Assembly (NCBI GenBank): GCA_008632985.1
Contig: QPGO01000197.1
Coordinates: 62,001 to 126,000 of the forward strand
DNA: 64,000 nucleotides
From: Psammoneis japonica
Taxonomy: Eukaryota
Direction of reading: 5' to 3'
Shown one piece after another: positions 33,801 through 64,000 of this stretch (position 1 is its first letter; each line of letters opens with the position of its first letter). Both the position numbers and the translations under genes were made by a program. The notes below the pieces were generated by a model. That model did not search any database, was not told the origin of the DNA, and saw nothing but the letters and a program-made list of their open reading frames with translations.

Positions 33801-34070
33801 GGCACCAACCAGCAGGCAGACAATGGCGCGCGTGTTGGCAAAAATGCTGTCGCAACAGCCAATGCTGTGTGCCTGCATGGTGAGTCGCACCAATGCCTGT
33901 GAAAACACATGTCTCACAATGCTCTCAGGCAAGCTCGTGGTGCCGCAAGGCATCAACATGATGCAAGTGGCAACAGCTCATCAGAAAGTGGTGCTCATGT
34001 TTGTTGGCAATGAGGTCAACAAAGGTGCAGAAGCAGCGTGGCTTTTTTGCAATTGCGCAGCTTCCACCTG
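30845..34070 (+). pseudogene. Decayed host-like gene(s) including a WD40/beta-propeller-like segment (~32800-33500), TpA-depleted
   Basis: Protein-like fragments across broken frames (MDHSDEEEQEQRLVDTLQNLE; SSNVKTFDLRSGKA; KGVMMWDIGALKPM); Tyr nearly absent. Confidence 0.4.
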
Positions 34071-34782
34071 AGCTCGCAGAAAAATTTGGCGGTCATTGGC
34101 ACCAAGTGAGAGCATCTTTGCCAGCAAGTCATGAACATGAACCCGCGTCTGTGCATCTTCTGATGCAAATGAGACTCACCCAAAATCATCATTTTCAGTG
34201 GATCACAAACCCACTTGTGGCGCCAATGACCCTTGCAGATGCCTGTTGGCGCAAAGATTGCTCCAACCCTAGAACTTGCTCAAGGTTGCTGAACAGCCTC
34301 AATCAAGAGAGATTGCTTTTGCGCCATGCTGGCAGAACCCCCAGTCTTTGCTGCAAACTGTTGGGTGCGAGGGGCCACAATTTTGGTGGGTTTGTCTGGG
34401 GCACACTGCACTTCTGCATGGTTGCCATGAAGCAGCAGGTTGAGTGATCAGCGGCACTCTCATCAGCCTGGTTGTGGCCATTGCAAGGTGCTGACAGGGT
34501 TCCTCCTTGCACCCACCAGTTCTGGACATGCCCGCTACACCACAGCCAATGAAACCACCATGACTCAAAGGCACTGACAAGAAGGCAGTTTAAGACCAAA
34601 GCAAGAACGGCAAATCTTTGGTGACAAAATCATGCACATCATGACAACAATCCTGAGAACAAGTTGCCCCCCTCCTCTGCCATTTTTGTGTGGGGTGCTG
34701 AAGCTCCTGTTCAACCAAAGACTTTCCTTGGGGAGCGCTGCAGAGAAAAAAAAGCATGTCCTCAAAGCAGCACCAGCAGCTG

Positions 34783-36190: not shown

Positions 36191-37004
36191 CTGCTGCCAT
36201 CATGGTTTCTTTCTGTGGCATCATGTTTTGACACTGTGTGGTCATTGCTTTCAAAAAGACTGCAAGGCATGTGACAATGGAAGAGTGCTTGAAATGTGAT
36301 GCAATGCGGGCAAAAATGGACTTGAAGGGTGGGGACAAAGTGTGATGGCATTGTTGCAGCAGCAGCTGTGCAGGACTCAGGGTTGCTGGCCTCAAACCAA
36401 GCTGCACATGGCAAGGAAGGCTCTCTGTTTCAAGCTCTGTGTGCAGTGTTCTTTTGGTTTTGGGGTGCTGCAACGACTCTCTGCCACTGGACCTTGGAAG
36501 GTTGGTGCCTGGCAGTGGCTGCTCAGTTGCTTGCCACACCCTCACACCCCCCACACCCCTGAGCTGTGGGTGTGCAGAACAATGGAGTCTTCAACAGCTG
36601 ACAAGATCCCACAAATGAAGTGCGTGTGAGCACCCCAGCTTTGGAGAGGTGTGGCATCAATGACAAGGGTGCAACCCAACAAATGGCAGTTGCCGCTGAT
36701 GGCATGTTTCCTGGCCAACGCCCTTTCTCCATTGGTTTGTCACTCCAGCCGGCATTGAGTGAAGCAAGTTGCCAGGAGGTGTGTGTCACCAGCTCTCTAA
36801 ACCACTCATGTCACCACCCTCATCTTGTTGGCCAGCGTCATTGCGTGGGGCAAAGTTTGAAGATGACAGCCAAGATGAGGGATGATGGCATGCACGCACG
36901 CAGAGCGCAGAGATGCGGCAGGGAAGCCGCGGCATGCCGGCAGAGGGCCTTCTGCATAAAATCATCTCACACGGTGCACCTGCAACCCTCGCTGGCTCAT
37001 GACA

Positions 37005-37756
37005 ATGGGCTTTGAGACAAGCACTTTCATCTGCCAGCCGGCAGACAAAAATCTTTGCTGTCCATTGTGCCTGCAAGTTTTTGACAGCCCAGTGACCACA
37101 TGCCGTGAAGGTCGCGTGCTCTGCAAGGCATGCTTCAACAAGCTGCGCCCTCCAGACAAGGGAAACATCACTGTGGCCACCTCCAACAAATGCCCGCAGT
37201 GTCAAGGATGCTTGGTGGACACACCACTTCCAAACCACCCTCTCCAAGGCATCATGTCTGGCCTGAAAATGAGATGCGAGAAGGTCACTTGAACTGTGTT
37301 GCCTGCGCCAGTCATTGCACCGGAGCATGCAACTGGCAGAGAACTGTGGAGGAATGTGTCACCAACCACAAACAAACTTGCAATCCCTTCGATTTGCATG
37401 GTGGCTCAACAGAATGCTCAGCAGCACAAGAGCAGATCAGACGAGGTGCTGACAGCATTGCGGCAGCTGTGCTGGAGTCGGGAGAAACCAAAGAACAAGG
37501 CAAGGCTTTGGTGCAAGCCCCGGCCCATGATGACGCATGGTCAGTTTCTCTTGCCCTTGGAGGAGAACAGGCCAGGGTGGATCACCTGTTGCCAGTGGAC
37601 TGTTCTCATTTGGCAATGAGGGAACAGGGCAGATTCATTGGGGACTTTTGTGGTGGCAAAGCAGAGATCACTTGGGAAGAGGCACGTGTTTTCTTTGTCA
37701 GGTGCGTGCTCGACCAGATTCATTCAAATGATGAAGGCCAGGAAAACAAGGAATGA
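37005..37756 (+). pseudogene. Hypermutated, frameshifted copy of the RING-finger gene at 39691-40494
   Basis: Colinear with the intact gene; many TA->CA/TG and CG->CA/TG changes; frameshift near 37280 and an internal deletion. Confidence 0.9.
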
Positions 37757-39690
37757 ACTTTGCGGCAGTGGAAGACAAGGAGCAACGCCAGGGGGAACGC
37801 ATGTCACATCATCCTGAGTGATTCCTTGCGTGCCTCACCATTTGTTGTGTTCTCCACAATGTAGAAAACTGATTTTTGCAAAGCTTTCACATTCACTGGC
37901 TCCAATTGCATTGCAAATTAACATGTGCCAATGCTGATGTTGCTGCTGCACCCTGCTCTGCCCCCCATTTGACAGCAGCAAAATCACTTGGGCTGGTTGC
38001 CAAGGAGGATTGATGCAAGGGCTGGAAGACTGGAAATGCCCTGATGCTTTGTCAACCTCAGCATGGTTCCGAAGTGCAGATGGGCAGGCAGCATGTGCCG
38101 GCACGGTGCAGCACCTGTCCCAGTCATCACATGTGAACGAACATGCACGCATGCCAAAAAGGGGCCACAGTCTTTGGGTGCCATCCACCTTCCAAAATTG
38201 CAAATGAAAATTGCAACTTTCCAGCACAAAAAGAGTGCTGAAATCCTGGAGAAAACAGTGTGTTGCCATGGCAGCATGACAGTTGATGCTTTCTCAATGA
38301 GACAACATTGCAGAGGCAGGCCCATCAGCAAAGATTGCTCAAACCCTGGAACTTGAGATTGCTTCCACACCACTCTGGCAGAGCTCCAGCCAGTCTTTGC
38401 TGCAAACTGTTGGATGTGAGGGGCCTCAATTTTGGTGGGTTTGTCCTGGGCACCCTGTGTTTCTGCATGGTCAGCCATGGAGCAGCAAGTTGTGTGGTCA
38501 GCGGCACTCTCGTCAACCCAGCTGTGACCATTTGCAAGGTGCTGACAGGGCTCCTCTTTACACCCAGCTCTGGACATGCTCTTGAGCCACAGCCAACAAG
38601 GCTGGGGCTCAATGGTGCTGACAAGAAGGCAATTTGTGACTCACATGAGAGCGGCAAATCTTCAGCAACAAAATGGTGCACACCATGACAACAATCCCCT
38701 GAGGACAATTGCCCCTGCTCCTTTGCAAATTTTGTGTGGTGCTGAAACTCCTCTTCAACCCAAGACTTTTTTCCTCGGGGGACACAACAGAGAGAGAGAG
38801 AGGTCAGAGCATCCTGTCAAGCAGCACCAGTGGCAGCTGCCATCATGTCTCTTTCTGCAACCTGATGGTTTGATGCCATCTGATCATTGCAAAAAGACTG
38901 TGAGGCAAGTGGTGGTGGAAGTCTTGAAATGTGATGCAGAACAGACCAAAAAGTGCTTGAAAGAGAGACTGAGTGTGATGGCATTGTTTTGGCAGCAGCT
39001 GCATGGTGGGGTTCTGGGTCGCTCTCAAACCAAGCTGCACATGGCAAGGAAAAGGCCGTCTGTTTCAAGGTCTGTGCACAGTGTTCTTTCAGCTTGAAGG
39101 GTGCTGCAAAACAACTCTCTGCCAGATCTCTGAAGGCTGCTGCCTGGTGCCCCCCCCCCCAAGCCTTGGCTGGGTGCGCAGAGTGCGGAGTCCTCCTCAG
39201 CTGGCAAGATCCCGCAAAAATGAAGCACTCACCTCAGCTTTGGAGAGGTGTCAACACAAAGGGCATGACCCAAATGGCAGTCAACACTGAGAGTGTGTTT
39301 CTTGGCTGATGCCCTCTCTCCATCTGTTTGTCACTCAAGCCAGCGTGCCAAGTGTGAAGCAAGTTGCCGGGTGTGGTGTGCTGTGTGTGTCACCAGCTCT
39401 GCTGTGAACCACTCCTGTCGCCACCCTCATCTAGAAGGCCAGCGTCATTGCATGGGGCAAACATTTGAGGATGGCAGTCAGACAAGATGAGGGATGAGGC
39501 CAGATGCGGCAGAGATCAAGGGAAGCCAGTGGCAGGGACTTCTGCGGATTTACATGACGGATGGTCCTTTCCATCCATCACACTCCAGAACAGATCCTTT
39601 CTTTTTTGGTCTGGCTGTCGTCGTAAGCTCATTCTTCCATCGCAATGATGTGTGTGTCAATAAATCGTCTCACACACCGGCAGATAGACA

Positions 39691-40494
39691 ATGGGCTTCG
39701 AGACGAGCGCTTTCATCTGCCAGCCGGTAGACGACAATCTTTGTTGTCCATTGTGCCTACAAGTTTTTGATAGCCCAGTGACCACATGCCTTGAAGGCCA
39801 TGTGCTCTGCAAAGCATGCTTCGACAAGCTGCGCACTCCGGATGAGGGAAATAATAATGCAATTGCTGCCTCCAATAAATGCCCGCAGTGTCGTGGATGC
39901 TTGGTGGATACGCCACTTCCAAACCGCCCTCTCCAAGGTATCATATCGGGACTGAAAATAAGATGCGAAAGTCACTCGAACTGCGTTGCCTGCACCGGTC
40001 GTTGCACCGGAGCATGCGACTGGCAGGGAACTGTGGAGGATTACGCCACCCGGCATAAACCAACATGCAGTCATTGCAGCTTTATATCCTGTGAAGCGTG
40101 CACGACTATGGTCCGAAACTGTTGTGTTGATTCGCACAGTGGCTCAACAGAATGCCTAGCAGCGCAAGAGCAGATCAGACGAGGTGCTTATGGCATTGTG
40201 GCAGCTGTGCTAGAGTCGGGAGAAACAGACCAAGAGCGAGGCGAGTTTTTGGTACAAACCCTAATCCATGACGACATGTGGTTAATTTCTATTGGCCTTG
40301 GAGAACGGGTCGGGTTGGATTACATATCGCCTGCGGACTATTCTCGTTTGGCAACGATGGAACAGGGCGGATCCATTAGGGACGTTTTCGGCGGCAAAGC
40401 AGAGATCACGGAGGAAGAGGCTCGTACGTTCTTCGTTAGGTGCATTCTTGGCAAGATGAATTCAAATGTTGAAGACCAGGACAATGAAGAATGA
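39691..40494 (+). CDS. C3HC4 RING zinc-finger protein (TRAF/SINA-like arrangement)
   Basis: CPLC..CLEGHVLCKAC..CPQC RING, followed by LKIRC..CDWQG..H..C zinc finger. Confidence 0.88.
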   Translation: MGFETSAFICQPVDDNLCCPLCLQVFDSPVTTCLEGHVLCKACFDKLRTPDEGNNNAIAASNKCPQCRGCLVDTPLPNRPLQGIISGLKIRCESHSNCVACTGRCTGACDWQGTVEDYATRHKPTCSHCSFISCEACTTMVRNCCVDSHSGSTECLAAQEQIRRGAYGIVAAVLESGETDQERGEFLVQTLIHDDMWLISIGLGERVGLDYISPADYSRLATMEQGGSIRDVFGGKAEITEEEARTFFVRCILGKMNSNVEDQDNEE

Positions 40495-41313
40495 ATTATT
40501 TTGCGGTAGTAAACGTCAAGGGGCAAGATCAGTGTGAACGGATTGTCTGTGATCTTATATCCGGGCGTGATTTCTTCTTCTACCCCTTTGTTATTATTTG
40601 TCATATTCCCTATTCCGATTTATGCGTTGGAAGGATACATGTAGTACATGATAAGATTCGGATCATATCTTTTGCGACGTATTGATGGAAATCTTCTCTT
40701 TGGATCCATTTGCGCAATAGAATGTGTCGATCTTTTTAATCTCTCTTGTTGTTGCATATTGCAAAGCTTCCGCATCCACTGACTCCAATTATTTTACAAT
40801 TAACTTTTGTGCGTATGCTCATGTTGCTGCTACATCCTGCTCTGCCCCATTGAACAGCGGCAAAAAAAGTGACTTGGGAAATATGGTCGCCGAGGAGGAT
40901 AGATGCAAGGACTGGAAGACCGGAAAGTTCCAGAATGCTTCGTCAACCACGACATGGTTCCGAAGCGCAAATGGGCAGGTAGGATATCAGTGCGAAAGAA
41001 TGCACATAGGAAGGTTGGGGTAGATGGCATGAGCCAGTGCACCGTACAGTCCGAAGGAGCCAGGCGTGGTAGTATGTATTAGATGCAGAAAAGAAATACA
41101 TCATAGCTTTTAGGTCGAGAACTGAATGCGAATGGCTTGTAAGCACTTCGCTTTTAGAGTGACGCAAGAGAGCCATTCTCTTCATTCTGAAATGCAATAT
41201 CATATTGCGATCTTGCCGAAAAGAGAAGTGCCAACAATGAGCCAGACATTTTAAACTCAACTTTGCTTTGCAAATAAATAAACTAATGTGACCTAAGCCA
41301 ATTGAAAAGTAGT

Positions 41314-48452: not shown

Positions 48453-49084
48453 GCTCTTGCCAGAGATCTGTGCAATACGATACAAGCAACTCGAGGGAAG
48501 AGAGAATGAGTGAAACATTTATGGCCTTTACCTTTACACATCAAAAAGATCATGGCCGTTTTTGCCGGTGACAATTTCGAATGTTTTCTGTCGAAGACCT
48601 CGAAAATATTATGACTGCTTCATGTAAGACCAATGACTTTGATAGATATTCATTTAAGGCGGGTCATCCCCGCGTTTATCCTAGAAATTGCAGTGTCTCG
48701 CACCTTATTTTTCTGATATATAGTATTAATGAACCTATTAGATATAACGGAAGCCGTTGTAACGGGCTTCGCTGAAAGCGACCCTCGTTACCTCGGTCTT
48801 TCGCTCACAATTTTGTCATCACTGAAGTCTTTATCTCGTTAGACCTTGCACTGTAATTACAGTCGATTCAAAGAACTGGATGGAGACTAGGAACAATACA
48901 AACAAATTGACTAAACGTGAGAAAAGAGAACCACGCGCAAGAGCAGCAGTTTGGGCTGTTGAGCACCAGAAACAAGTGCAACAACGCAAACGACACGAAC
49001 AGAATTTGGCGAGCCGAGTGCATCATTTGGAGTCAAAGGTAGAGTCCCTGGAGAGGACTGTTGAACAATTGTATTCCCTTTTTC

Positions 49085-50699
49085 ATGATGAGTGAATCGT
49101 TGAAGGAGCCTTGCATTGGCTGTGAAGCTGAATTTGAGCATTCTGACTTGGAGGAAGTGAAATTGACCCAATCGCATGATGACGGCAGTGCTCATACAAA
49201 AAAGTGTCCGCGTTTTGATGGTACTCATGGCATTGAAGCATTGTTATTCGTTGAGGATCGTTTTCGTAAAATTGCTGTGAAATTGGAGTGCACTGCTGGC
49301 GAGGAGTTGTTCGAAAATTTCGAGGAAGTGCTTGCGGATGCTGCAGACGCGTTCCAGGTCTAGCTGGGACCTCGTACTGCTGAACTGTGACATCGATAGT
49401 TTTTTGAATCACGTCGTATGTCGCGCACGTAGATTTCTACGTGATTTTTTTGATATTTTGTGTCATTTTACGGTACACTTATTGAGCGATCCGTCCAACA
49501 ACTTTTGACATTTTTTGTTACAGCGCGATTCTATAATGTCTTAAGAATCGCTTAGGGCAGGTGCATTTGCAAAAACGTCGAGTGGTAAGAGGCATAATTG
49601 TACCACAAACTTGGCCGTTTATTTGATGTTGAAGATAAATATATCCATTAATTAAATTCTCGTACTACGGAGCTCGCACGTAGAATTCTACGGGCCCAAT
49701 GTCACACGGAGTCCCACCTGGGGCTGGAACGCGTCTGCAGAGGACAAGTGGGCGAACTTGACCAATGCAATTGACGATGCCGATAAAACTGTCGAGCGTT
49801 TTGATCAGGAAATCAATCGTTTTTACTTGTCTTATTGTGACAATGAAGCACGTGATGTGATGATTGAATGTTTGCCAACCTTGAAAAAACCATTCAAATC
49901 TGAAGTGCAGGCGCATGCAGATCGCATGGAAACCTTGATTCGGTGCTCCAACAAACTTCCAGGAAACACTCCTCAAGTCAACAAAGCTCAGAAGAAAAAG
50001 ATGATGTTCGACAGCTTTCCTCGTCCGTGGCGTGAGATGTGTGCTCGAGCAGGACGAGCGACAGTGAATGACACTCTCGCTGAGATCATCAGTTGCACGA
50101 ACAACGAGAAATCTTTTGCTGACAAGAGTGGCAACAAGAAGCAGGACAAGAAGAGGAAAAGCAATGGTGCTTCGTCTCAAGCTTCAAGATGCTCTCGTGG
50201 CAACAGTGGCAGAACAGATCCAGAATCTAGATGCCCGGTGCATGCGAATCACGACCACAAGTGGAAGGACTGCATTTTGAATCCAGAAAGCCAAAACTGT
50301 CGACCGAGGTCCGACCGTGGTGGTCGTAGCGGAGGTTGTGGTGGAGGCCGAGGAAACCACCAAGGTGGAGGACCCCAAGGTCGAGGCGGTCGTGGCAACT
50401 TCCAAGGTCGAGGACGTGGCAATCATGGCAATCAAGGAGGATGTGGAGGCCGAGGTTACGGCAATTGTAACAACTCCCAGAATTCTCAAGGGAGTGGATC
50501 CCATTGCCAAAATCAAAACGGCACCCAAGCCAACGGTGACACCCAAGGCTGTGGAAATCCGGCTGGAGCAGCTCCTCCTGGTGGCTGGCAAATGGAGTCG
50601 CACCATTTTGATCAAGGAGGGCCTCGTGAGATGCGAGGTGGAAATGGACACGATCAGAATGGTTGCACCCATCAAGGCCAACGAAGTTGGCGTAATTGA
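49085..50699 (+). pseudogene. gag: Gypsy gag interrupted by a 390-bp MITE
   Basis: Removing 49346-49739 joins ..EEVLADAA-EDKWANL..; CPVHANHDHKWKDC knuckle; RGG-rich tail. Confidence 0.85.
49346..49735 (+). mobile_element. 390-bp MITE, copy 1 (TpA intact)
   Basis: 12-bp TIR GACGCGTTCCAG/CTGGAACGCGTC; 4-bp TSD TGCA. Confidence 0.92.
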
Positions 50700-53600
50700 C
50701 AAGGGACGGAAGTGCCCGAGTCAGAGCGTGTTGCTCAATCTTTTTATGTTTCGCGTGATCGTGAAGAAAATGTGTGTTTTAATGTTGATGACAATGTGGG
50801 AGACCTGATGGAATCTTGTGCTGTGAATGAAGAAAACTTGGGCGGCGTTTTGGAGTGCGCTGTGCCAACCCCTAAAACTGCGACTCCCAAACCATTGAAT
50901 GTGGTGCCAACGACGTTGATGGCGGCGCGCACCATTCAAAATCAAGAGAGCAAGCGAGTGTTGCGAGTGCTGTTGGATTCAGGAGGTGCCAACACTCTTG
51001 TTCATTCTCGAGTTTTGCCGAAGGGAGCGAATCCAACCATGAACGATGAAGGACGGTTGAGCTTTCAGACGGTGGCCGGACGATGTGAATCCTCCCGATG
51101 CGTCATTGTGAAGGACTTGACATTGCCAGAATTTGACAAGTCAAAACAAGTCGACAGTGTTGCGGCTCAAGTTTTTGACACCCCATGCAAGCATGATTTA
51201 ATTTTGGGACAAGACTTTTTGTCGAAAGCCGGAATCGGGCTTGATTTTCGATTTGGAACAACAAAGTGGTTGGAAACGTCGATCCCAATGAAGCAATCCA
51301 ATCATTGGAACTCAGTTCAGAATTGGTTGGATGCACTGGAAGACGACGGAGAGGACGAAGACGATGAGGAAGCCTTCGGACAATCTTTTGTGATGGACGC
51401 CAAATGCGAGAAAGCATCATCCGCGAAAGTGGCACAAGCTCAAACTCACTTAACTCAAGAACAACGTGATGAGCTGCGGGCTGTGCTTGAAAAGCATGAA
51501 ACCCTCTTTGATGGAACGCTTGGCAAATGTCCGCATGAGACTGTTCGCTTGGAAGTTGATCCCAACGCTGTTCCCTTCCATTCTAAGGCTTGCAAAGCAT
51601 CCAAGAGGGATGAAGCCGTTTTTAAGAAAGAACTGCAACATCCATGTAATGTTGGCGCACTGGAGCCAGTGGGACCAACTGAATGGGCAGCCGGAACTTT
51701 TGTAACTCCCAAAAAGGATGGACGAGTTCAATGGGCACCCGATTTTCGAGAGTCGAACAAGGTGCTCAAACGAAAGGTCTGTCCTCTGCCGATCATTCAA
51801 GACGTTGTTCACTGATGCTCGGGATGCAAGCACTTGACCAAGTTGGACCTCACTGTGTTTTATTGTCATGTTGAGCTTGACAAAGAATCCAAGGATCTGT
51901 GTGCTGTTGTTGCTCCGTTTGGAAAATTTCGATGTTGTCGATTGGCCATGGGTTTGAAAACCTCTCCCGATGTTGCTCAAGCCATCATTGAAAAAGTGGT
52001 GAAAGGAGTCGATGTTGAAACTTACATCGATGATGTTGCTCAATTTGATGATTCGTTTGATGCTCACATGCGTCGACTCGATGAGCTGTCATCCAGACTA
52101 GAAGAGAACAATCTGAAAATTAACCCACTCAAGTGCGAATGGTGTGTCCAAGAGACAGATTTTTTAGGCCATTGGCTCACGCCTGCAGGAGTCCGACCAT
52201 GGAAGAAGAAAGTGGAAGCAGTGCTACGAATGCAACCACCTAAAACCATGATGCAACTGCGATCGTTTGTCGGTGCGGCAACTTGTTGTCACAACATGTG
52301 GCCTCGTCGCTCACACGTGCTCGCTCCACTCACGAAGTTGACAGGCAAGAGCAAGTTGGAATGGACCCCTGAATGTCAACGAGCCTTTGAAGACATGAAA
52401 ACCTTGATGCTGGACGACACCCTTTGGGTCCACCCGAATCATGACAAGCCATTCCACATTTGTGCTGACTCTTCGGACTGTCAGATGGGAGCCGTGATTG
52501 TGCAAGACGGGAAACCAGTGGCTTGCTGGTCCCGGAAACTCAGCGCAGCACAACAGAACTGCTCTACGATTGAAAAAGAATCATTGGCGGTGGCAATGTG
52601 TTTCAAAGAATTTTGAAGCATGTTGTTTGGAGCTGACTGTGCTGTTTTTGTGGATCATAAAAATCTCACCTTTCGCACGCTCAATTCTCAACGAGTTCTT
52701 AGGTGGCGACTCTTCTTGGAAGATTTTGCCCCAACTTTCGAATGCGTTGATGGCAAAGACAATCTCTTGGCGGATTGTTTTTCAAGATTGCCGCACATGG
52801 ACCCTCCTGCGGAAGGGAAGTGTGCTCCCAACAAGGGCAAGCTGATTGATTTTAAGGCGATCGACCCTGCCATGCTGCCGCATGAAGAAGAGCTGGACGA
52901 CCAAAACTGTGTGTCTCATTTTTCCTGTCGTCGTGAAGAACCATCTCCATTTTACTCTTCTGTCGTGGACGACCCCAAATTGTGTGAATCATTTTTGAAC
53001 TGTCCTTCTCTCGAGGAAATGCAAAACCCCACAACTGTGCAACGAATTCAAGAACACCAATTCGTCGACGTGGAGCTGAACAACATGCGACAACAATGTC
53101 CAGAATGCTTCGTTGTGAAACATGTGAATCAGCGTCCTGTAATTTGTTGTCGTGCTCGACCGAATGATCCTCCGACTGCGTGGAAAATTTGTGTTCCAAC
53201 GGCGTTGCTGCACGACATCATATGATGGTGTCGTGGGATTTTGGGACATGCAGGAGTGCACCGAATGCATTCCACTGTTGGCGCACATTTCTGTCATCCT
53301 GCCCTTTGTCAATCCTGTGAAAGATTTCATTGTGCTGATTGTCAACATTTGAAAACTTTAGGCCCTGGGTGTGGGGACCCACCTGAACAGGAAGCGCCTT
53401 TGTTGCCATGGACGGAAGTTGCGGTTGATCTCATCGGTCCCTGGAAAATTGAAATTCAAAACCATGAAATCGAGTTCAACGCTTTGACTTGCATTGATGC
53501 CGTTTCGAATGTGACTGAACTTGTTCGCATCGACAACAAAACCTCGTCTCACATTGCTCAACAATTTGAAAATTGTTGGTTGTCTCGTCATCCTCGTCCC

Positions 53601-54194
53601 AACCGGTGCATCCATGACAATGGTGGAGAATTCATTGGAGAGGACTTTCAATTGTCATTGCAACGAGCAGGAGTGGAAGACGCTCCGACTGCGTCGCGAA
53701 ATCCACAAGCCAATGCGGCATGCGAGCGCATGCATCAAACTGTTGGAAGTGTCTTGCGCACTTTGCTTCATGTTTGTCCTCCACAGAATGTTGAGCAGGC
53801 CAATCAACTGGTGGACAATGCATTGGCAACCGCCATGCATGCAATGCGATGTGCGGTTTCTCGTGCTCTCAAGATTTCACCCGGTGCTGTGGTTTTTCAA
53901 CGTGATGTGATTCTCGACTTGCCGGTCCCAGCCGATCTTGCCGCCATTCAAGAACACCGACAAGCGATCATCAATGCGAATCTCCGTCGAGCCAACGCTA
54001 AACGCCGATCCCACGATTTTCAAGTTGGCGGACAAGTTCTGCTCAAGGCCATCGACCCAACCAAGCTCGAGCCACGAGCTCACGGTCCACATCCTGTCGT
54101 TCAAGTGCATGCTGACGGTGCGCTTGCGGTCCAACGTGCACCTCATGTGACAGAACGATTGAACACACGTCGCGTCGTACCGTGTCACACCTGA
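50700..54194 (+). pseudogene. pol: Gypsy pol (protease, RT, RNase H, integrase) with in-frame TGA stops and pervasive Tyr->Cys/His changes
   Basis: LLDSGG, YIDD, ADSSD..GAVIVQDGKPVACWSRKL, H..H..C..C, VDLIGP, DNGGEF, ERMH; TGA at 51813, 52614 and 53223 where CGA fits. Confidence 0.93.
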
Positions 54195-54434
54195 GGTCAA
54201 GGGTTTTCTCCCCAACATTTGGGTTTCCCTTCTATCCTCATCCATTGGAATTTAAATTTTTTGAGTCCCGCATGATTCTCGACACTCGAGTCATGGAAGG
54301 GAAGAGTGCAGTGTCTCGCACCTTATTTTTCTGACACACAGCATTAATGAACCTGTTAGATATAACGGAAGCCGTTGTAACGGGCTTCGCTGAAAGCGAC
54401 CCTCGTTACCTCGGTCTTTCGCTCACAATTTTGT

Positions 54435-54458
54435 NNNNNNNNNNNNNNNNNNNNNNNN
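54435..54458. other. Assembly gap (24 N)
   Basis: Run of n. Confidence 1.
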
Positions 54459-54776
54459 ATAAGTAATCATAAGTCATCATAAGTCATCAACAGCCCTCAC
54501 GACTCAAAACATAGAAAGGCACATGAATAAATAATGCATAAACAGTATTATGTTCTTCGCCAAACAAGACTAAATTTAACGGATAACCGTTAAAAACTAC
54601 ATAACACCATTGACAAAAATTTCCGTTGTGTTCATATAAATATACATAACTCATAAAAATTCGCGGACGGTGCTGTGTTGTTGCGTGCATCGCACAAACC
54701 ATCCTCATGATGTTACCAACAGACATACACCGCCAACATTTCTGCTCTTCAAGATAGGAACTAGTCGTTGTTTACT

Positions 54777-56007
54777 ATGAGGATTTCAACTGTGTGTGCT
54801 GTTACAAGTCTTGTTGTTGCCCTGAGTGCTGCTGTTGAAGGAACCTTTTATCCTGCAAACAACATAGAGAATTTCAGTTTTGCAGGCCGGTGGCAACAGC
54901 TTGAGGATGATGGTGTTGTCAGGTCGGACTGGCCGTGCAGCAGAGTGCAATTCAACATAAACATGACTGCAGAAGATGGCGTCATTACCCTCCGAGTAAA
55001 ACTTCATCGGGTGCGGCTCAACGCAGTCGTCACCAACGCAGTCACCGGCGAACTGGAGCAAACAACGATTCTGAAAGGTAATTCGTTTCGGCAGAGAAGG
55101 ATAAATACGGCATTCGAATTGAAGCACCGGAATGCACACCGTCACACTGACAAAATTGACACAAGCGGCACCCTATGGCAATGGTTTGGGCAAGTCAGCC
55201 ACGTCGGTGCTTGAATTCTATGGAGTAGAAATGGATGACGATGTCGCGACTCTTTCGCTTCCACCAAAACTGCCGGTACACCGGATTGGTTTTATTGGTG
55301 CCAGTGATACGGCAGGCTTTTGTGTGGATGGTACTCCGCAAGCATGTGACCATCTCGTTCGACCCTGGAAATACAACAATTGCGACTCTGCATATCCTGG
55401 CGTCTTGGGAAAACGTTTGAATGCCGAGGTGAGCGTCCAAGCCATATCAGGCATTGGACTGACGCAGAATGCGTTTGCGAATTTGCCAGTGGCGCTTGGT
55501 GAAAAAACAATACAGGATTATTACAACCGAACCCTTCAGACAGAGACGCTGCCTTTTTGGGACTTTGAAGAGTGGCGACCACACCTTGTGATTGTTTCTC
55601 TTGGTGGAAATGATTATAACCACCAAGAGGAGGTACCTTCCAACGAGACTTTTGTTCAAGCATATCAAAAGTTTCTTTTACAGATTGCCGAACCATATAC
55701 AAACGATGAAATTCCAACAATTGTGAGTATATGTGGGCAAGGGGACCCGACGGAACTGAGCCGAGATCCAAACAATGATCGTTGTCGGCCTTGTCCGTAC
55801 ATACAATACGCGGTCGAATCCTTTCAGACTATGCATGGTGCAACCATTCCGACCGAATACATTTTTGTTCCATGCGACGGCACGGTTGTGTCGGGAGATG
55901 GTGATATTGGTTGTGACGGCCACAAGAACCGGCTTGGTCAAGAGCGGGTGGCTGACTTTTTGGAACCAAAGCTTCGTGAAATCATGGGCTGGCCCAACAG
56001 CCAATAA
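54777..56007 (+). CDS. Secreted SGNH/GDSL esterase (carbohydrate esterase CE2-like); apparent frameshift ~55095-55125
   Basis: Signal peptide; FAGRW, FIGASDTAG (block I variant), AISGIG, LGGND, DGH; the paralogue at 57.7-59.3 kb has two extra bases here that restore the frame. Confidence 0.8.
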
Positions 56008-56524
56008 GTTCGACAGAGCCGATGGCTACATCAACGAGCGGAGGTGTTGCGATGACTGTCGTAGCCTACCCATGTAGTGCACGGCAGCATTTTGGCATTA
56101 TCGGAAGTTAACTTGCTGCAAAGGGCGACGTATTATTTCAGCTTCTTCCTTCAGACTTAGTGAGCTCTTGTGTGATGAGAACTTTCCTCTCTCTTCTGCA
56201 CCGGTGTAGTCTCGAGATTATGAGCTGTAGCTACACAGATGTGACTTTTCAATCGCTTTGGGCTCCTAAGTGTCAGCTAAGTCGCAAAGCGTCAACCGCT
56301 TATTTTGCCATAAGAATCTTTGGTGAAAGACATAAGACAGCGTCGTGCGCAACAGAGTCACTCTTGCCGTGAGTAGGTTCAACACACGTCGTATTGGATA
56401 GTTTACAGGTTTTAGCTGTTATAATAGACAATGTCTAATGTGCAATACACTGACGTTTCGTTACGCACTGGCATATTTTGGAATGGTGTGAACGTGCTGC
56501 GATTTTCCGCCAACAAAAGTCGGA

Positions 56525-57346
56525 TCAAGTCAAGAAGCCAGCATCCACCAATCCCTTGATTTTTTTACACTCGACCTTGTGATTTCTCTTCCATGCAGCA
56601 CGTTGGCATTCTTTGGAACAAAATTGGGCGATTTTGCAGGCGGAGCACTTTTTCATGACTCTTGCAGAAACCACCTTTTGACAGCCCGGACAATACGCCT
56701 TGCGCCCATCCAAGCAATGGCAATCAATGCGGCGAGCGAGAAACGGAACCACATCATCGCCGCAGTCAATGCGAGCAACCTCTCTGTAGCGATATTTCAA
56801 GGCGTCCGTTTCAGAGGAAAACTTCGGCTGACTGCCCGTCTCTTCTTCCGCAAGTTTTTCAATCACCACGCATACTGCGTCAACAACGGAGCCCTCTCCG
56901 GAGGCAACTGGGGGTCACCGTCCACCAGGGCGTCAACCGCCGTGGAAAAAAGAAAGCACGCAAAATCTTTTGTAATCGGAATTTGATCCTTACAAGCATT
57001 CACGGCATCTACGGCGGGGCTTAGTTGGGTGTTGTTCCAACTAATTCGCACAAGCCTCGTTCAATTTTGACATTGACATTGAGTAGGACATGAATTTACT
57101 TTTGTTGCCTTGATGGTTGTAACAGTGATAGCACGGTTCACCATTCGGTTTGTTTGCCTTGTGGATACAAAACGGGTTGTTGCACGGACAAGCCGCGGGT
57201 GCTGGTCTCTTTTCCGCAACGCAGCCTCTGCACAACCGTTTTCCCCACTTTGTTAAGTTCAAAGGCAGTAAAGTCCGCCGAACCAGCTCTTCTTGACAAC
57301 GGTAGCAGGTCGGCATGGTGTATGATGATGGTTTTATAATCGTCAA
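56525..57346 (-). CDS. MYND zinc-finger protein; two apparent frameshifts
   Basis: CPGC..KKCSACKIAQFCSKECQRAAWKRNHKVEC preceded by RRIDCHCLD. Confidence 0.75.
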
Positions 57347-57670
57347 TCTGTTTCCACTCTTCTTGATTCTTGATGCAATGCTAGATGCTTAGCTACTGTA
57401 GCTATCGAAACTGAAAACTTCTGTGCGCCGCAAGCCGCAAGGCAGACAACGCCTGCAATGAGGCACAGAATCAAGACCAACACACACCCGAGACACTGAC
57501 AAGACAATCCCCGTGGACTGACGTCCGTCCCCCAGCCGTCCCGACGCCCGTCGCAGTTTTGAAGTTCGAAAGTTGTGCACATCGAACAAAAACCATCCCA
57601 TGGTTATGGTGTCACTGCCAACAGACAGCACCAACCTTGTTGCTTTTCAAGCTACAGCCGTCGTGTTGCT

Positions 57671-59320
57671 GTGAGGATTTCAACTGTTTGTGCTGTTGCA
57701 AGTCTTGTTGTTGCCTTGAGCGCTGCTGTTGTTGAAGGAACCTTTTGTCCTGCAACAATGCAGAGAACTTCAGTTTTGCAGGTCACTGGCAACAGCTTGA
57801 GGACAATGGTGTTGTCAGGTTGGACTGGCCATGCAGCAGAGTGCACTTCAACACAAACATGACTGCAGAAGAGATGGCATCCTTGCCCTCCGAGCAAAAA
57901 TTCATCGGGTGCAGCTCAGTGCAGTCGTCGCCAACACAGTCACCAGCAAACTGGAGCAAACAACAATTCTGAAAGGAAATTTGTTTCAGCCAGAGAAGGA
58001 CAAACATGGCACTCAAATTGAAGGCACCAGGGTGCACACCGCGGCATTGGCGGACGTGCTCCAGCCCCAGGTGGGACTCCGTGTGACATTGGGCCCGTAG
58101 AATTCTACGTGCGAGCTCCGCAGTGCAAGAATTTAATTGATGGATGTGTTTGTTTTCAACATCAAATAGACGGCCAAGTTTGTGGCACAATTGTGCCTCT
58201 CACCACTCGACGTTTTTGCAAATGCGCCTGCCCTGCGCGATTCTCAAGACGTCACAGAATCGCGCTGTGACAAAAAATGTCAAAAGTTTTTGGACGGATC
58301 GCTCAATGACTGCACCGTAAAATGACACAAAATGTCGAAAAAATCACGCAGAAATCTGTGTGCGCGACATGCGACGTGATTAAAAAAACTGTCGACGTCA
58401 CAGCTCAGCAGTGCGAGGTCCCACCCAGACCTGGAACGCGTCGGCGCTGACAAAATTGCTGACACAAAAGCGGTGCACCCTGTGGCAACGGTTTGGGCAA
58501 GTCAGCCATGCCGGTGCTTTAATTCCACGGAGTGGAAATGGATGACGCTGTTGCAACTCTTTCAACTCCACCAACACTGCCAGCATGCTGGGCTGGTTTT
58601 GTTGGTGCCAGTGATGTGGCAGGCTTTTGTGTGGATGGCACTCCGCAAACATGCAGCCATCTTGCTCAACCCTGGAAATGCAACAATTGCAACTCTGCAT
58701 GTCCTGGCATCTTGGGAAAACGTTTGAATGCTGAGGTGAGCGTCCAAGCCATTTCAGGCATTGGACTGACGCAGAGTGCGTTTGCAAATTTGCCAGTGGC
58801 GCTTGGCAAAAAAACAATGCAGGGTCATTGCAACCGAACCCTTCAGACCAAGACACTGCCTTTTTGGAACTTTGAGGAGTGGCAACCACACCTTGTGATT
58901 GTCTCTCTTGGTGGAAATGATTGCAACCACCAAGAGGGGGCACCTTCCAATGAGACTTTTGTTCAATCACATCAAGAGTTTCTTGTGCAGATTGCCACAA
59001 GCCATTTACAAACGATGAATTTTCAACAATTGCGAGCACATGTGGGCAAGGGGACCCGGCGGAACTGAGCCAAGATCCAAACAACAATCATTGTCAACCT
59101 TGTCCACATGCACAAGATGTTGTCAAATCCTTTCAGATTGCGCATGGTGCAACCATTCTGACCGAACACATTTTTGTTCCATGCAACGGCCCGGTTGTGA
59201 TGGGAGTTGGTGACATTGGTTGTGACAGCCACAAGAACCGGCTTGGTCAAGAGCGGGTGGCTGACTTTTTAGAACCAAAGCTTTGTGAAATCATGGACTG
59301 GCCAAACAGCAAATGCGTTT
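57671..59320 (+). pseudogene. Hypermutated duplicate of the SGNH esterase gene, interrupted by MITE copy 2
   Basis: Colinear with 54777-56007; start ACTATGAGG->GCTGTGAGG; WKYNN->WKCNN, AYPG->ACPG, DYYN->GHCN, NDYN->NDCN. Confidence 0.93.
58053..58442 (-). mobile_element. 390-bp MITE, copy 2 (inverted, TpA-mutated)
   Basis: Reverse-complement match to 49346-49735, same length; TSD GGCG (58049-52 / 58443-46). Confidence 0.92.
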
Positions 59321-59620
59321 GACAGAGCCGATGGTTGCACCAACAAATGGAGTTGTTGACACAAGAACCAGCTTGGTCAAGAGCGGGTGGCTGACTTTTT
59401 AGAACCAAAGCTTTGTGAAATCATGGACTGGCCCAACAGCTGACATGCGTTCGACAGAGATGATGGCTGCACCAATGAATGGAGTTGTTGACACAAGAAC
59501 CAGCTTGGCCAAGAAAGGGTGGCTGACTTTTTAGAACCAAAGCTTTGTGAAATCATGGACTGGCCTGACAGCTGATGCGTTCGACAGAGCCGATGGTTGC
59601 ACCAACAAATGGAGTTGTTG
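59231..59620 (+). repeat. Tandem triplication (~130-132 bp unit) of the esterase pseudogene 3' end
   Basis: ACAAGAACC..TTTTTAGAACCAAAGCTTTGTGAAATCATGGACTGGCC units starting at 59231, 59361 and 59493. Confidence 0.9.
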
Positions 59621-62201
59621 TGATGACTGCCAGACAACTGCGGACATTGTTGTCTGCTCATGTGGTGCCATGTGCAACATTGCAACTTTGTCAGAAGTTA
59701 ACTTGCTGTAGAAAGTGACTTTGGTTTTAGTTTCCTCTTGCATTGGTGAGCTTTTGGATGATGAGAACTTGCCTCTCTCTCTGCTGCACCAGGCAATCTT
59801 AAGACCAGGTGCTGTTGCCACACGTGCATCTCTTGAGGAGAGAGAAAGAGATTGTTCTAAGTCAGAGTGATTGTGGCTGATGCGTGCAAAGCTGCCATGT
59901 GTTTGGAAGTTGTGGTGTCTCTCATGAATCAGGCTGGAGGTGTTGGCATCCTTTTGCACTGCCAGGAATCCCACTGCACCAGTCTCATTTTCAAGCAAGA
60001 ATCTTCCACACCAGTGCTCATGTCCCAAGTTTCTCAGATGCGGAAGATTGGAGACCAACAGGAAATGAAGTGGTCTGTGCTTCCCCCTGCATGAGTGTGT
60101 GTGTGTGTGGTGGTGTGTGTGTGGGGGGGGGGGGGGTGCTGTGCGTTGCTGCTTCTGAGGTGCTTTGTGCATTGCAGAAGCAGCACTCATGGCTGCGAGC
60201 ACCTGACAAGCCACGGCAACCTCACTCTTTTCTTTCACCAATGTTGCACTGCATGTTTGACGAGTTGAGAGTGAGTTTTTGCTTGCAGCCCACACCACCC
60301 ACCCATTGTGGCTCTCTGGCAAGAGCTCCAGTTCTGGGTTCCTTGAGTTGCAAGCTCTGGCTTGAGGTCTGGTGCCAGTGGCTTGCACCACAACCAACCA
60401 GAGTGCTCAAAATCAGGATCATCAGCCAACAGTGAAGAGCAGAGTCAGAGAATGACAGAGGTCAATTGACCAGCAATTGCTGAAGAATCAGCTGGTTGGC
60501 CATTGAGCAAGTCAAAATGACAAGGAATTCAAAGACTCAGGTTGCACCTGGCACTGGCAAAGCTGGTGCTGGAAGCAAAACAAGAGCAGTGGTGCTGGGT
60601 GCTTGCTGAGGAAGCAGCACATGCTCCAGCCACACACGAGCTTTTGTTGTGATCTCAGGACAGCCAGCAATGCTGAGCTGGGAGGATTGCCTCAGTGAAT
60701 GGTTGTGATTTCCAAGTGCATGTGCTCATGATTGGTGTGCCACACAAACAGCACCCAGTTGCTTGTGCACTCTGTGGGAGCATCTTTGCTGCAGTTGTGC
60801 CTGCTGTGCAATCTTTGCAAGTTTTTCACATTTTTGATCTTTTCAACTCTGCTGAAATTTTTTGCCAACAGACAGCACACCACCGACCAGGGAGGTTTCC
60901 ACAGAGAGAACGTTTGATGTGCGGCTGCTGCAGCGCACCTTGGATCCTGTTGCATCATGGCATTTGTTGATTCCGCTGCTGGCGCGGCCGTGCTTGCTGG
61001 GGCAAGAGCTGGTGGTGGTGGTGGTGGTGGGGTGGAGGTTGAGAGTTCAAATCTGAGGCTCTGTCAAAAAAGCAATTGTGGCTTGTGAGGCAAAAGAAGA
61101 GCTGCCGCCGAGTGCTTCGCCAGCCTGGAGCCACTGTTGCTCTGTGTTTTGCACTGGTCACTGGCTGCCATCAAATGGCCAATGGAGTTGTGTGGTTCTG
61201 TTGCATTGGGGCCGGGAGACACAGAAATGGATTGCAGTTGAGTCACATGAAGAGCTGCGGGGGCGGTGAAAAAAGACAGAGCTGGAGCATGGGATTCAGA
61301 TGGGATTGAACACAACCAGGCCTGCGGGGAGCATTGACCACTTGTCTTTCTTTGTGGGTGTGGGTGCATGTGTGCCGTTGCATGCTGCATTGCCTGTACG
61401 TGCACAGGGCCCTGCCGTCGGGGCCGGCATTGTGGTGGCTGAGTGGCGTGGCCACCGCACCGGTGACGCGGATGACCGTCACATTTGATGTCTCATGCCA
61501 TTTTTGGGGCTGCAGCGAGGTGCACGGACACTCTTTTTTTTCCAATTTATCGCCACAACAGCACATCGCACAAACTCACTTGTTGTTTGATGTGTTTTCC
61601 CCAGTCTGACTTTTTCATGTAGAATTCACGACAAATTGTCTTTGTGTGCAACTGAACACATTTTTGAACATGCCACGCCGGCAATCCCAATTTTTCAGAA
61701 CTTTTGAGCTCTCCTGAAAAACCGTGCCATGCACCAGTCGCAGGGAATTTGCCGATTTTTTAGGATGTCCCCACAACCTCTCATGTCCTCAATGACAATT
61801 CCAAGAATCCGAAGAATTCATCTGCACTGAACAACCCATGCCCTTTCAAAATCCAAGGGACACACTTTCAAATTCAGACGGACAAACCGACTGCCCCACT
61901 GCCCCACTGCCCCACTGCCGGACCGACACGAAAAAGTCTGCAATCACCAACCACTGAGTGGTCAATGATTTGTTCTTCTGCTCACGCATGTCATGCTTCG
62001 AGCAGTCATGCAATCTGTCCGTCGGTCTGTGCGTGAAGCCAAAAAATGACAAAAGAAAACAAACAATGAAAGAAGGCTCTGCGTGCGTTGCAGGTTGCAG
62101 CAGTGAAGCATCCAGCATTGCTGCGATCGCTGCATGCTGCGTCTCTTCATCCTCCCCACCTTGCCATCATCTTGAGTGCCACTTTTGACAACAAGCCTTC
62201 C

Positions 62202-62984
62202 ATGACTTCCTTTGACCAACTCGACAAGGGTGTTCAGCGTGGGCTGCAAGTCCTTGCAACACAGCATCGGCATGCTGTCGTTCAAGCAGTTCTCAAGAAA
62301 GAAGATGACTTTGGCAGGACAGAAAGTCATGAACTGTACAAAGGCTGTGCGCAAATCATGAAGGAAGAGAATTTGTCCCCTGCTGCATTTCTGGCTCGCT
62401 CTTTTGACATGAAGGTGCTGACGGGTCACGCTGAGTGGCTGGAAGCACCCTGTGACAAAAACAACGACACCGTGACCGACTTGTGCACATGCTTGGAACA
62501 AGCGTGGCTCAACCGAGAATTTCCGAACAAATCAATTCCGATGTGTGACAATGCCAATCATGAGGAAATTGAAGGGAGGAAGAAGAAGCTCGAGCGCGAG
62601 GCCCGTGAGAATTCGTCGTTCGAGAAGAATGATCCAACAGAAATGACCAAGCCACACTGCCGGTTCTTCATCTGCCTTGCACATGAAGAAAAGGACAACA
62701 ACCAACCTCCTGAAAACTTCTATGAAATGGCAGAAGAGGCGGCTCAAGCTTTCTGGGAATTGATGTTTGGAACCTGTGGGCATGCCAATTGCCACTTGGA
62801 TTGCCCCGGTTGGCTTGCAAACAAATTCTTCATCTCTGCTGAAGTTGAACTTGAAAACATGGAAACCACTGGTGTTCCGGAAACTGCAGAACTGATTGAT
62901 CAAGAAATCTCAATGAAAGGGGTGTTCAGATTGGATGCGGGTGATGTTGGAAAGAGTTACGTTGAAATCACTCGTGTGGAATGA
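62202..62984 (+). pseudogene. Protein-like open frame inside a TpA-depleted block (hypothetical protein or mutated relic)
   Basis: 260 codons with natural composition (E/K-rich coiled stretch), few Tyr. Confidence 0.45.
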
Positions 62985-63195
62985 ACGCCTGGTGTGGCAC
63001 ATGGCTCTTGCATTGAGGTTCACAGTGCCACTTGATTGCCAGGGGACAGCTCGGGGAACACATTCCACATCTTGTGAATGGTCGTGCGGTGGCAGAGACA
63101 CGTTCACATCACCGTGACAAATGTTGCTTTGCATTCTAATGACCAACGACAAAGGCTGCAACACAACTCAAACCATTGTGCAGAACTGCAGCCAT

Positions 63196-63642
63196 TGCAG
63201 TGTGCATGCAGACAAAAGGTTGTTTTTGTCATGCCCTTTGTGACATTTAAAGGCTGCAACACGTCGCTGTGATGCATTGGCTCTTGTTGGCAGCTGTGTG
63301 TTGCACTCCTCCCCATGTGTCACGCGTCCATGCGGCTCTTTACTGACATGTGCTGACACTGCACGGTTTTGGCAGAACAGTGTGGGTGCGTGCGAAGGAA
63401 CATGCAGAACTGCACAGAGTTTTTACGCGTTCGACAGTGATCAACGTTGCTGCAGACAACTCCCACTCAGGGTTTCGAACCCCTGGCCTCCTGCCTGATG
63501 GTTGCGATGAACTGCTGCATTGTGAACTCACAATGCAGTGTGCATGCAGACAAAGGTCATTTTTGTCATGCCCTTTGTGACATTTAAAGGCTGTAACACG
63601 TCGCCGTGACACATTAGCTCTTGTCAGCAGCTGCACACTGCA
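63196..63642 (-). mobile_element. TRIM-like miniature LTR element, copy 2
   Basis: Same structure as 25116-25567; ends TGCAGTGT..ACACTGCA; flanks CCAT/CTGT. Confidence 0.8.
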
Positions 63643-64000
63643 CTGTCCCATTGTTGCCGTTGCATCTCTCTAGACTGCAAATTTCAGTTTGTCGTGTTCG
63701 CAAGCAGCTGCAGTGTTGCACTCATCTTGCAAACTTTCCTTCCTTCTGATTGTTCCGTCCTTCTCTTGCTTGAGATGGTCCCTGCCACGCATGCCGGCAG
63801 AAGTCAGTCACCCGATCTGGGGGGGAAGCATTTTGGTTTTAGGCGGGCGGGCTCATCGCGCCCTTGCCCAGTCATGATGTCACGATCACGATCACGTCCA
63901 TCCATCTGTCTCATCAACGCAGACGGGAAATTGACCGTGCTTCCACCAAATGGCAAACTGCCAACTGCTGCTCTAGATCAGAGAGGGTCATCACCAGAGT

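Follow-up and report, generated by a model that had tools for sequence, protein, structure and literature searches.

The 64-kb window analysed here (the whole stretch of 64,000 nucleotides from contig QPGO01000197.1, to which all coordinates refer) contains a Ty3/Gypsy long terminal repeat (LTR) retrotransposon, at 48689-54434, whose interior has lost most of its TpA dinucleotides and most of its tyrosine codons. The element is most readily understood as a diatom-type Ty3/Gypsy copy that was hit in the chromosome by a regional hypermutation of TpA to TpG or CpA, with a slower decay of CpG alongside, and we place the probability of this reading at roughly 0.7.

The depletion is most apparent in the protein. 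Tyr accounts for four of the 1165 residues of the whole pol product (0.34%), next to 54 Cys and 46 His, whereas 120 full-length relatives have a mean of 3.52% Tyr and a minimum of 2.56%. As an earlier, first-pass annotation of this DNA had observed, the integrase frame (53226-54194) is devoid of Tyr, an outcome with P ~1e-5 at the relatives' 3.52%; its length is 322 amino acids from stop to stop, not 317. Conserved Tyr columns were defined as those with at least 80% Tyr in an alignment with 40 relatives (n=23), and at these pol retains Tyr twice (once in YIDD, the survival of which had also been noted), while Cys is found at 16, His at four and Phe at one. Other conserved residue types are retained at 53-100%, and the loss of conserved Tyr (21 of 23) compares with a loss of 7 of 32 for conserved Arg. 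The proposal that Cys or His now occupies motifs normally carrying Tyr is borne out by the consensus of the relatives, which reads ...PVAYWSRKL, ...KNYST.EKE, WLSRYPRP and HGPY at these places; the relatives do not share the Cys and His residues of the window, and none of the 120 falls below 2.56% Tyr. At the nucleotide level, pol holds 26 TA against 231 expected (observed/expected ratio, O/E, 0.11) and 189 CG against 206 (0.92), in agreement with the earlier description of an element still rich in CG with only sporadic CGA to TGA stops. Indeed, the three internal stops of pol (TGA at 51813, 52614 and 53223) are of the CGA>TGA type, and the relatives have Arg at these columns in 26 of 39, in 37 of 40 and, as the commonest residue, in nine cases. 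The 78 differences at conserved columns comprise 31 TA>TG and 11 TA>CA changes (42 of TA type), eight changes of CG to TG or CA and 28 that are neither; missense outweighs nonsense, as had been predicted, with these 42 TA-type changes against the three internal stops, though either a lost Tyr or a stop may have been the first to kill pol. Related metagenome loci (best 80 of 627) have a median TA O/E of 0.73, with a minimum of 0.43, and a median CG O/E of 1.0; no TA-depleted copy was found among these best 80 of 627, a selection biased against such copies, as one search pattern needed Tyr. A family natively without TA is ruled out by the Tyr of the relatives, by these TA-bearing loci and by TA in other copies of the family seen in sequencing run X1.

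The direction and specificity of the changes can be read from eight internal alignments of an unmutated with a mutated copy, consisting of pairs of host duplicates (including two small fragments), a pair of copies resembling miniature inverted-repeat transposable elements (MITE-like) and the LTR pair. In the pooled alignments 15 of 132 TA were kept and 117 lost, 57 having become CA and 46 TG, while 75 of 185 CG were kept and 110 lost, 57 to CA and 41 to TG. Per base, with both strands pooled, A>G reaches 40.6% at TpA and only 6.7% at ApA, 7.5% at CpA and 7.5% at GpA, and C>T reaches 27.6% at CpG and 4.0-4.6% elsewhere, CpA (4.3%) being equal to CpC and CpT. The changes are those of a TpA process and a CpG process, not of a process directed at the WA motif. 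The older duplicates also differ from their partners by insertions and deletions (indels) and by changes that are neither of TA nor of CG type.

Loss of TA runs ahead of loss of CG, as the first-pass annotation had held. Per site, TA loss exceeds CG loss in seven of the eight pairs, the exception being a pair with 6 of 7 TA and 9 of 10 CG lost. The clearest case is the MITE-like copy at 58050-58445, which lies inside an old lipase duplicate and has lost 23 of 28 TA and 3 of 27 CG, while the DNA surrounding it has lost 48 of 72 CG; at one and the same place, therefore, TA goes much faster than CG, and as the copy was hit inside an old block, the locus was still targeted after the insertion arrived. 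In the LTR pair, 5 of 12 TA have been lost from the 3' LTR, together with 0 of 9 CG, and 0 of 116 other positions differ; the five differences oppose TA in the 5' LTR to CA (four) or TG (one) in the 3' LTR. The same order is seen across the 64 one-kb windows, where the 28 with a TA O/E of 0.2 or less span CG values of 0.05-0.99, whereas the 33 with TA at 0.4 or more have CG at 0.70-1.20, none of them (0 of 33) being clearly below 0.7 and one lying at 0.70. Two mutational clocks, of which the TA clock is the faster, had been put forward, and their order holds; a passive TA clock does not, and a regional hypermutation specific for the motif T-A-Y is indicated instead, one that has left no mark on adjacent genes, on the 5' LTR or on an insertion that came later.

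This three-base motif emerges from the flanks. Where the A of the plus strand has a pyrimidine on its 3' side and the A of the minus strand a purine, the outcome was TG in 22 cases and CA in six; with mirror flanks it was TG in eight and CA in 23 (Fisher p 7e-5). The TA that survive in the blocks described below are biased in the same manner (chi-square 107, p 6e-24), their density relative to host DNA being 0.385 for Y-TA-R, 0.088 with one favourable strand and 0.026 for R-TA-Y. A simple fit of the hazards gave TAT 2.54 > TAC 1.53 > TAG 0.78 > TAA 0.27. The target is the A in 5'-T-A-Y-3' or, equivalently, the T in R-T-A. Tyr codons have been turned into Cys because, being TAY, they are the best coding-strand targets of such a process; the stop codons TAA and TAG are poorer targets, yet in time they disappear as well. 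In pol, TG outcomes on the coding strand are about three times as frequent as CA (31 vs 11 at conserved columns), with an O/E of 1.61 for TG vs 1.27 for CA. Strand-coordinated bursts were not seen among the TA outcomes, which form 51 runs against 54.4 expected (P 0.26).

The affected part of the element is wider than the 50700-54194 first proposed. It begins at 48913, reaches at least as far as 54352, where the LTRs last differ, and is interrupted by a MITE-like insertion at 49341-49740; TA O/E is 0.11 at 49851-50699 and in pol and 0.52 at 54195-54434. The interior is stripped, the 3' LTR partly affected and the 5' LTR spared. Nor is the element alone in this, as about 29 of the 64 kb, according to per-kb profiles, lie in TA-stripped blocks, grouped at 18.5-19.6 and 20.4-27.7 kb, at 30.5-39.7 kb, in the Gypsy element and at 57.4-63.6 kb. 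Within the blocks TA O/E is 0.00-0.18 and TG and CA rise to 2.0-2.2, while in host DNA TA O/E is 0.58-0.64 regionally (~0.5-0.7 per kb) and CG O/E 0.94-1.05. The older relics that the first-pass annotation took for transposons lacking both TA and CG are indeed low in both (TA O/E 0.01-0.02 and CG O/E 0.05-0.14 at 26-27 kb and 38-39 kb); their assignment to transposons finds no support, as a Pfam scan of 86 open reading frames (ORFs) of at least 100 amino acids detected no transposon domains in the old blocks, where the matches were one weak DUF6753 and remnants of Sina_RING and GDSL. Part of the relics are decayed duplicates of neighbouring host genes. The block at 30451-39651 includes 36188-38094, a tandem duplicate, now decayed, of the host segment 38831-40985, in which the region of a RING-finger gene (39687-40985) is normal and its counterpart (37001-38094 in the self-comparison) decayed, as well as fragments of host DNA from 43.4 and 45.4 kb. 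Likewise, a GDSL-lipase gene at 54680-56236 is normal, while its duplicate at 57572-59823, in the block 57404-63551, is decayed. The blocks have sharp edges, which are found 100-250 bp ahead of the frames of flanking, apparently live genes. The edge at ~39.55-39.66 kb sits within the tandem duplication, whose homology continues past it into the normal RING copy, and the beginning of the block at 57.4 kb precedes the duplicated segment at 57572 by no more than 170 bp.

The process acts on chromosomal DNA after integration and not on retro-copied RNA, as can be seen from the differences between the LTRs, from changes on both strands and from the involvement of host-gene duplicates and a MITE-like copy. 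Other copies of the family, represented by contigs of run X1, carry TA at sites that read TG or CA in the window (52625, 53929 and 54184), and show TG and CA swapped relative to the window at 51158-9, 51179-80 and 51192-3, as expected of independent hits on one ancestral TA; these comparisons draw on 40 of 138 difference rows and on short contigs covering parts of the element. The TA-poor sequence is real, though X1 may derive from the assembly's own sample: over 2204 nt of the mutated block at 57.4-60.4 kb, X1 contigs of single-copy depth (54-59) depart from the window by 12 substitutions, whereas about 13% separates this mutated copy from its normal partner. The rates of difference from X1 are 12 in 2204 for mutated DNA and 5 in 2727 for normal DNA, a possible hint of a raised rate of new mutation in the former. 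The block at 57.4-60.5 kb, which arose as a duplicate, is now at single-copy depth in X1.

Comparison with the runs brought out two further features of the assembly. At 58416-59257, one single-copy-depth X1 contig differs at 11 of 842 positions, mostly at sites of CG, TG, CA or TA type and including a swap of CA to TG at 59085-6, while three further X1 contigs from this block agree with the window to within 0-1 differences; the cause could be an error of assembly, or else divergence between strains or over time in hypermutable DNA. Single-base indels, on which runs X1 and X2 agree against the window, are found at 12 listed places, among them 55091, 55123, 56079, 56867, 57031, 57243 and 57284, and those at 55091 and 55123 probably cause the frame break in the GDSL-lipase gene between the ORFs 54765-55214 and 55123-56007.

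The following course of events would account for these features. A Gypsy copy would have integrated, and its internal region and part of its 3' LTR would then have been hypermutated in place. TpA would become TpG or CpA (A:T to G:C), with a preference for the adenine in T-A-Y, a hit on a coding-strand TAY yielding Cys and a hit on the opposite strand His, while TAA and TAG would vanish and leave the frames open. The same process would have stripped ~29 kb of the window, including the host-gene duplicates and the MITE-like copy, and would end 100-250 bp ahead of the coding frames of the apparently live neighbours. CpG would be lost more slowly within the blocks, most simply via deamination of methylated cytosine, which would also be the source of the CGA>TGA stops. 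The agent may be an adenine deaminase that works on DNA, or a modification of paired T to equivalent effect; such an enzyme would be aimed at silent chromatin and may serve genome defence, as proposed for the chlorarachniophyte Bigelowiella natans. Enzyme, aiming rule and defence role are inferred, while the sequence comparisons show the signature with its motif and regional limits, its action on DNA and the precedence of TA over CG loss.

In mutation-accumulation lines of B. natans, according to a 2026 preprint, two integrated viral regions mutate ~1000 times faster than the remainder of the genome, in some lines only, and nearly all changes are A>G and T>C at TpA, giving TpG and CpA (Mettrop et al., 10.64898/2026.01.13.699255). 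Its authors propose an ADAT2-like adenine deaminase that acts on DNA as a defence against invading DNA, and state that ADAR favours a 5' U (10.64898/2026.01.13.699255). The window resembles B. natans in its A>G and T>C changes confined to TpA, in discrete regions beside normal DNA and in the bias to GC; the TpA-poor clusters of B. natans, rich in CpA and TpG, also include reverse-transcriptase and DDE genes. The differences are equally plain. B. natans is a rhizarian, while the host here is probably a diatom, a stramenopile; the giant-virus insertion is given a Rho of 0.45 in the preprint, while TA O/E is 0.04-0.11 here, near saturation; and the targets are an LTR retrotransposon, a MITE-like element and host-gene duplicates in place of viral insertions. 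The main text of the preprint mentions neither diatoms nor CpG ('CpG' occurs 0 times; 10.64898/2026.01.13.699255), and the T-A-Y preference and co-occurring CpG decay seen here set the window apart from that main text. Also, hypermutation was observed in real time in B. natans, while here it is deduced from comparisons. The hits on the Gypsy and MITE-like copies fit a targeting of selfish DNA; host-gene duplicates are hit as well, and either the target class is wider than selfish DNA or it is defined by chromatin.

Several points weigh against this reading. All of the evidence comes from comparisons, no new mutation having been watched. Wherever the origin of a mutated segment could be identified, it proved to be repeated or duplicated DNA, and 170 bp at most separate the beginning of one block from that of a duplication. 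That the 5' LTR and the MITE-like insertion escaped has to be put down to protection or timing, which are additional assumptions. From the flanks, as modelled on the host duplicates, a TG share of 0.50 would be expected, which the sense-strand bias of pol exceeds; transcription or an added RNA-level step are possibilities here. An already mutated copy may have spread, with some of the changes shared by other copies of the family. The window has indel errors relative to X1 and X2 and 11 substitutions relative to one 842-nt contig, and the host is probably a diatom as judged from the nearest clusters of two of its proteins, which diatoms dominate, and the named relatives of the element.

Repeats and duplicates prevail among the targets, and a hypermutation of duplicated DNA triggered by homology, like repeat-induced point mutation (RIP) but with TpA as a new target dinucleotide, must accordingly be considered. 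In ascomycete fungi RIP converts CpA to TpA, creating TA and stop codons, and mutates both copies of a duplication. The window shares with it the dinucleotide-specific transitions that disable repeats in the chromosome and the relics with skewed dinucleotide ratios; unlike in RIP, TA is destroyed and frames are open, C>T at CpA is only 4.3%, the same as at CpC and CpT, and one copy of each pair is untouched (partner TA O/E 0.58-0.64). A homology trigger would suit the summed k-mer depth of the element (20-55x the value for the single-copy flank), the duplicates of nearby host DNA that make up whatever could be identified in the old blocks, and the beginning of the 57.4-kb block at most 170 bp before the duplicated segment at 57572. 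It is at odds with the untouched state of the partners (the lipase gene at 54.7-56.0 kb, the RING gene at 39.7-41.0 kb and the 5' LTR), with the MITE-like copy at 49341-49740, which has the highest summed depth of all and yet is unmutated, with the tandem duplication 36188-38094 / 38831-40985, whose homology spans the edge of the mutated zone, and with the hypermutated B. natans region, described in the preprint as single-copy (10.64898/2026.01.13.699255). We regard the homology trigger as unlikely. A rule based on domains of silent chromatin is favoured over it, because the edges are sharp, one of them lies inside continuing homology and the partner copies of the duplicates are untouched; the homology rule keeps some weight. 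The sense-strand excess of A>G in the internal region (~3:1) and the lesser effect on the LTRs than on the interior would both suit a copy that was born mutated, through ADAR- or APOBEC-like editing of its RNA or cDNA in the course of retrotransposition, and many changes may moreover be common to most copies of the family. Editing of animal retroelements by APOBEC3 or ADAR acts on cDNA or RNA and is strand-specific, and APOBEC3-edited retroviral DNA shows gradients, which the contrast between LTR and interior recalls. Clustered transitions of deaminase type that cripple LTR retroelements are common to both situations; here, unlike there, the changes are on both strands, distinguish the two LTRs and extend to DNA that was never reverse transcribed. 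Sense-strand T>C makes up 11 of the 42 assignable pol changes and four of the five LTR changes; the difference between the LTRs is not what RNA-level edits in U3 should yield; the signature recurs in host-gene duplicates, intergenic DNA and the MITE-like copy, none of which passes through RNA; and copies show TG/CA swaps at the same site. Editing of this kind is thus highly unlikely.

The loss of TA and CG in the same blocks and the unclustered strand outcomes (51 runs vs 54.4, P 0.26), which independent hits fit as well as bursts, might be explained with no dedicated enzyme at all, TpA being eroded by a chromatin-dependent bias of replication or repair such as error-prone patch repair after 5-methylcytosine deamination. 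Methylated transposons lose CpG by this deamination, and the window shows the same trend, CG going to TG or CA at 27.6% per C vs ~4.3% for other C, with CGA>TGA stops as a product; unlike in plain 5-methylcytosine decay, the loss of CpG appears here as a slower, second component only. Errors of polymerase eta follow a WA motif, which raises A>G at both ApA and TpA. No such pattern is seen in the window, where A>G at ApA (6.7%) is not above that at CpA or GpA; a density of R-TA-Y down to 2.6% of that in host DNA, with CG of the young element at ~90%, requires a rate far beyond that of ordinary repair errors, and the B. natans process is reported to be episodic, at ~1e-6 to 1e-7 per site per generation (10.64898/2026.01.13.699255). 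A repair bias is distinctly unlikely. As candidates in their known forms, fungal RIP, ADAR or APOBEC editing of retro-copies and WA-motif repair each failed a defining test here. Finally, base-calling errors of long reads at modified bases could in principle have written TA and CG as TG or CA. The window does have indel errors relative to the two runs at 12 listed places, being probably part of an incompletely polished long-read assembly, and in one mutated stretch of 842 nt it differs from X1 by 11 substitutions, mostly at sites of CG or TA type. Single-copy-depth X1 contigs nevertheless reproduce 2204 nt of TA-poor sequence with 12 substitutions, against a partner difference of ~13%, the old duplicates show indels and changes of neither TA nor CG type too, and Tyr-poor relatives rich in Cys and His are present in other public assemblies. 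An artefact is extremely improbable and already largely refuted. The regional hypermutation of TpA in the chromosome remains the reading that we prefer.

A full-text search of the literature found TpA-specific hypermutation of integrated DNA in one 2026 B. natans preprint only, and in no diatom paper. A second and far more saturated case, in a probable diatom, would mean that the process is not the peculiarity of one species. It also extends the targets beyond viral insertions, to retrotransposons, MITE-like elements and pseudogene duplicates, and the T-A-Y motif is a constraint that any candidate enzyme must explain. A comparative route to such an enzyme is offered by genes common to both hosts and absent from algae without the signature. 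Tentatively, and at somewhat less than even odds, we suggest that diatoms, and perhaps much of the SAR group (stramenopiles, alveolates and Rhizaria), possess an 'adenine RIP', an enzyme system constantly directed at particular silent loci, in which the adenine of T-A-Y in chromosomal DNA is deaminated or its paired T modified. Were this so, a retrotransposon, MITE or duplicated gene that lands in such a locus would lose its TA while CpG hardly changes, Tyr codons would be erased and TAA and TAG removed, much of the genome would be filled with long meaningless open frames, and T-A-Y would serve as a footprint for locating the enzyme.

The anatomy of the element and the extents of the old blocks are given in Table 1. 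The LTR pair (48689-48816 and 54307-54434) is identical at 123 of 128 positions (96%). Gag and pol form one frame (49656-54194) without frameshifts, interrupted only by in-frame stops, all of which are TGA (translation with TGA as X leaves no other stop). The domains of pol follow the Gypsy order of protease, RVT_1, two RNase H models and rve; RVT_1 and RNase H exceed the curated Pfam cut-offs, while rve (26.4 vs 32.6 bits) and Asp_protease_2 (22.2 vs 24.3) fall under theirs. The same Pfam search returned no family for the gag-like frame. At positions matching the consensus of the relatives, pol reads LLDSGG, YIDD and VAVDLIG / IHDNGGEF / CERMH, which we take to be the catalytic motifs (protease DSG, reverse transcriptase YxDD and integrase D,D,E). 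Relatives of pol number 488 proteins in a large collection, the best being 63-64% identical, and in the order of its domains and its 45-64% identity to hundreds of relatives the element resembles diatom Ty3/Gypsy elements; named shorter relatives come from the diatoms Cylindrotheca closterium, Nitzschia inconspicua and Ditylum brightwellii. A tblastn search of the window with six relatives revealed no second copy, the two queries listed each matching this element alone.

Table 1. Features of the Ty3/Gypsy element and of the old TA-poor blocks in the window
Feature	Position	Strand	Basis or remarks
Ty3/Gypsy LTR retrotransposon, one copy	48689-54434	+	LTRs, frame, Pfam
5' LTR	48689-48912	+	First 128 nt paired with 3' LTR, end approximate; TA O/E 0.90 (18 TA in 224 nt)
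Leader / 5' internal region	48913-49338	+	TA 6 observed vs 31 expected, O/E 0.19; CG O/E 0.95
MITE-like insertion	49341-49740	+	35-nt terminal inverted repeats; TA O/E 0.90
Gag-like frame	49741-50699	+	Ends at in-frame TGA; same frame as pol
pol: protease, reverse transcriptase, RNase H, integrase	50700-54194	+	Pfam
Candidate polypurine tract	54295-54306	+	12-nt all-purine run abutting 3' LTR, read from the sequence
3' LTR, partly hypermutated	54307-54434	+	Direct repeat; truncated by 24-N gap 54435-54458
Short old block	18451-19551	.	TA-poor
Old block, without assigned origin	20401-27701	.	TA O/E 0.04, CG O/E 0.36; no ORF domain above Pfam threshold
Old block	30451-39651	.	TA O/E 0.06, CG O/E 0.44; Sina_RING remnant 36960-37289
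Old block	57404-63551	.	TA O/E 0.08, CG O/E 0.51; GDSL remnant 58523-59065 (Pfam)

Three of 120 shorter relatives, which are short reverse transcriptase/RNase H sequences from public assemblies in ENA, are themselves poor in Tyr (0.46-1.39%), with His or Cys at 8 of 12 (P0142), 4 of 7 (P0235) and 4 of 8 (P0160) conserved Tyr columns; hypermutated copies thus exist outside this window too.

The inverted arms of the MITE-like insertion lie at 49341-49375 and 49706-49740, and run X1 contigs join 49338 to 49737, skipping it. This copy is pristine, while the second one, at 58050-58445, is in reverse orientation and TA-stripped; the former either arrived after its host element had been hypermutated or was shielded from the process. 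The MITE-like element (~400 bp) has a summed k-mer depth of ~157,000 in run X1 vs ~57 for single-copy DNA, pointing to a very abundant family, summed depth not being equal to copy number.

The window holds two segmental duplications of neighbouring host DNA in which one copy, or part of it, is hypermutated while the other carries an intact-looking gene. A leftward extension of the lipase duplication was rejected, as the purine/pyrimidine alignment scored 79 vs a shuffle maximum of 62 but is visibly non-homologous left of ~54690. Another purine/pyrimidine match, of 56052-56967 with 59640-60596 (score 161, without shuffle control), was left out of account. A repeat common to two old blocks, 87% identical between 25108-25568 and 63188-63643, contains an internal direct repeat of ~110 nt. 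TAA and TAG together number 175 in the blocks vs 1276 TGA, and it is because TAA and TAG are almost gone that long open frames occur in all six phases. The blocks 20401-27701, 30451-39651 and 57404-63551 contain many frames of 100-347 amino acids, 83 of 86 of which have no Pfam match at E <=0.01, and such frames could be annotated as proteins by gene finders.

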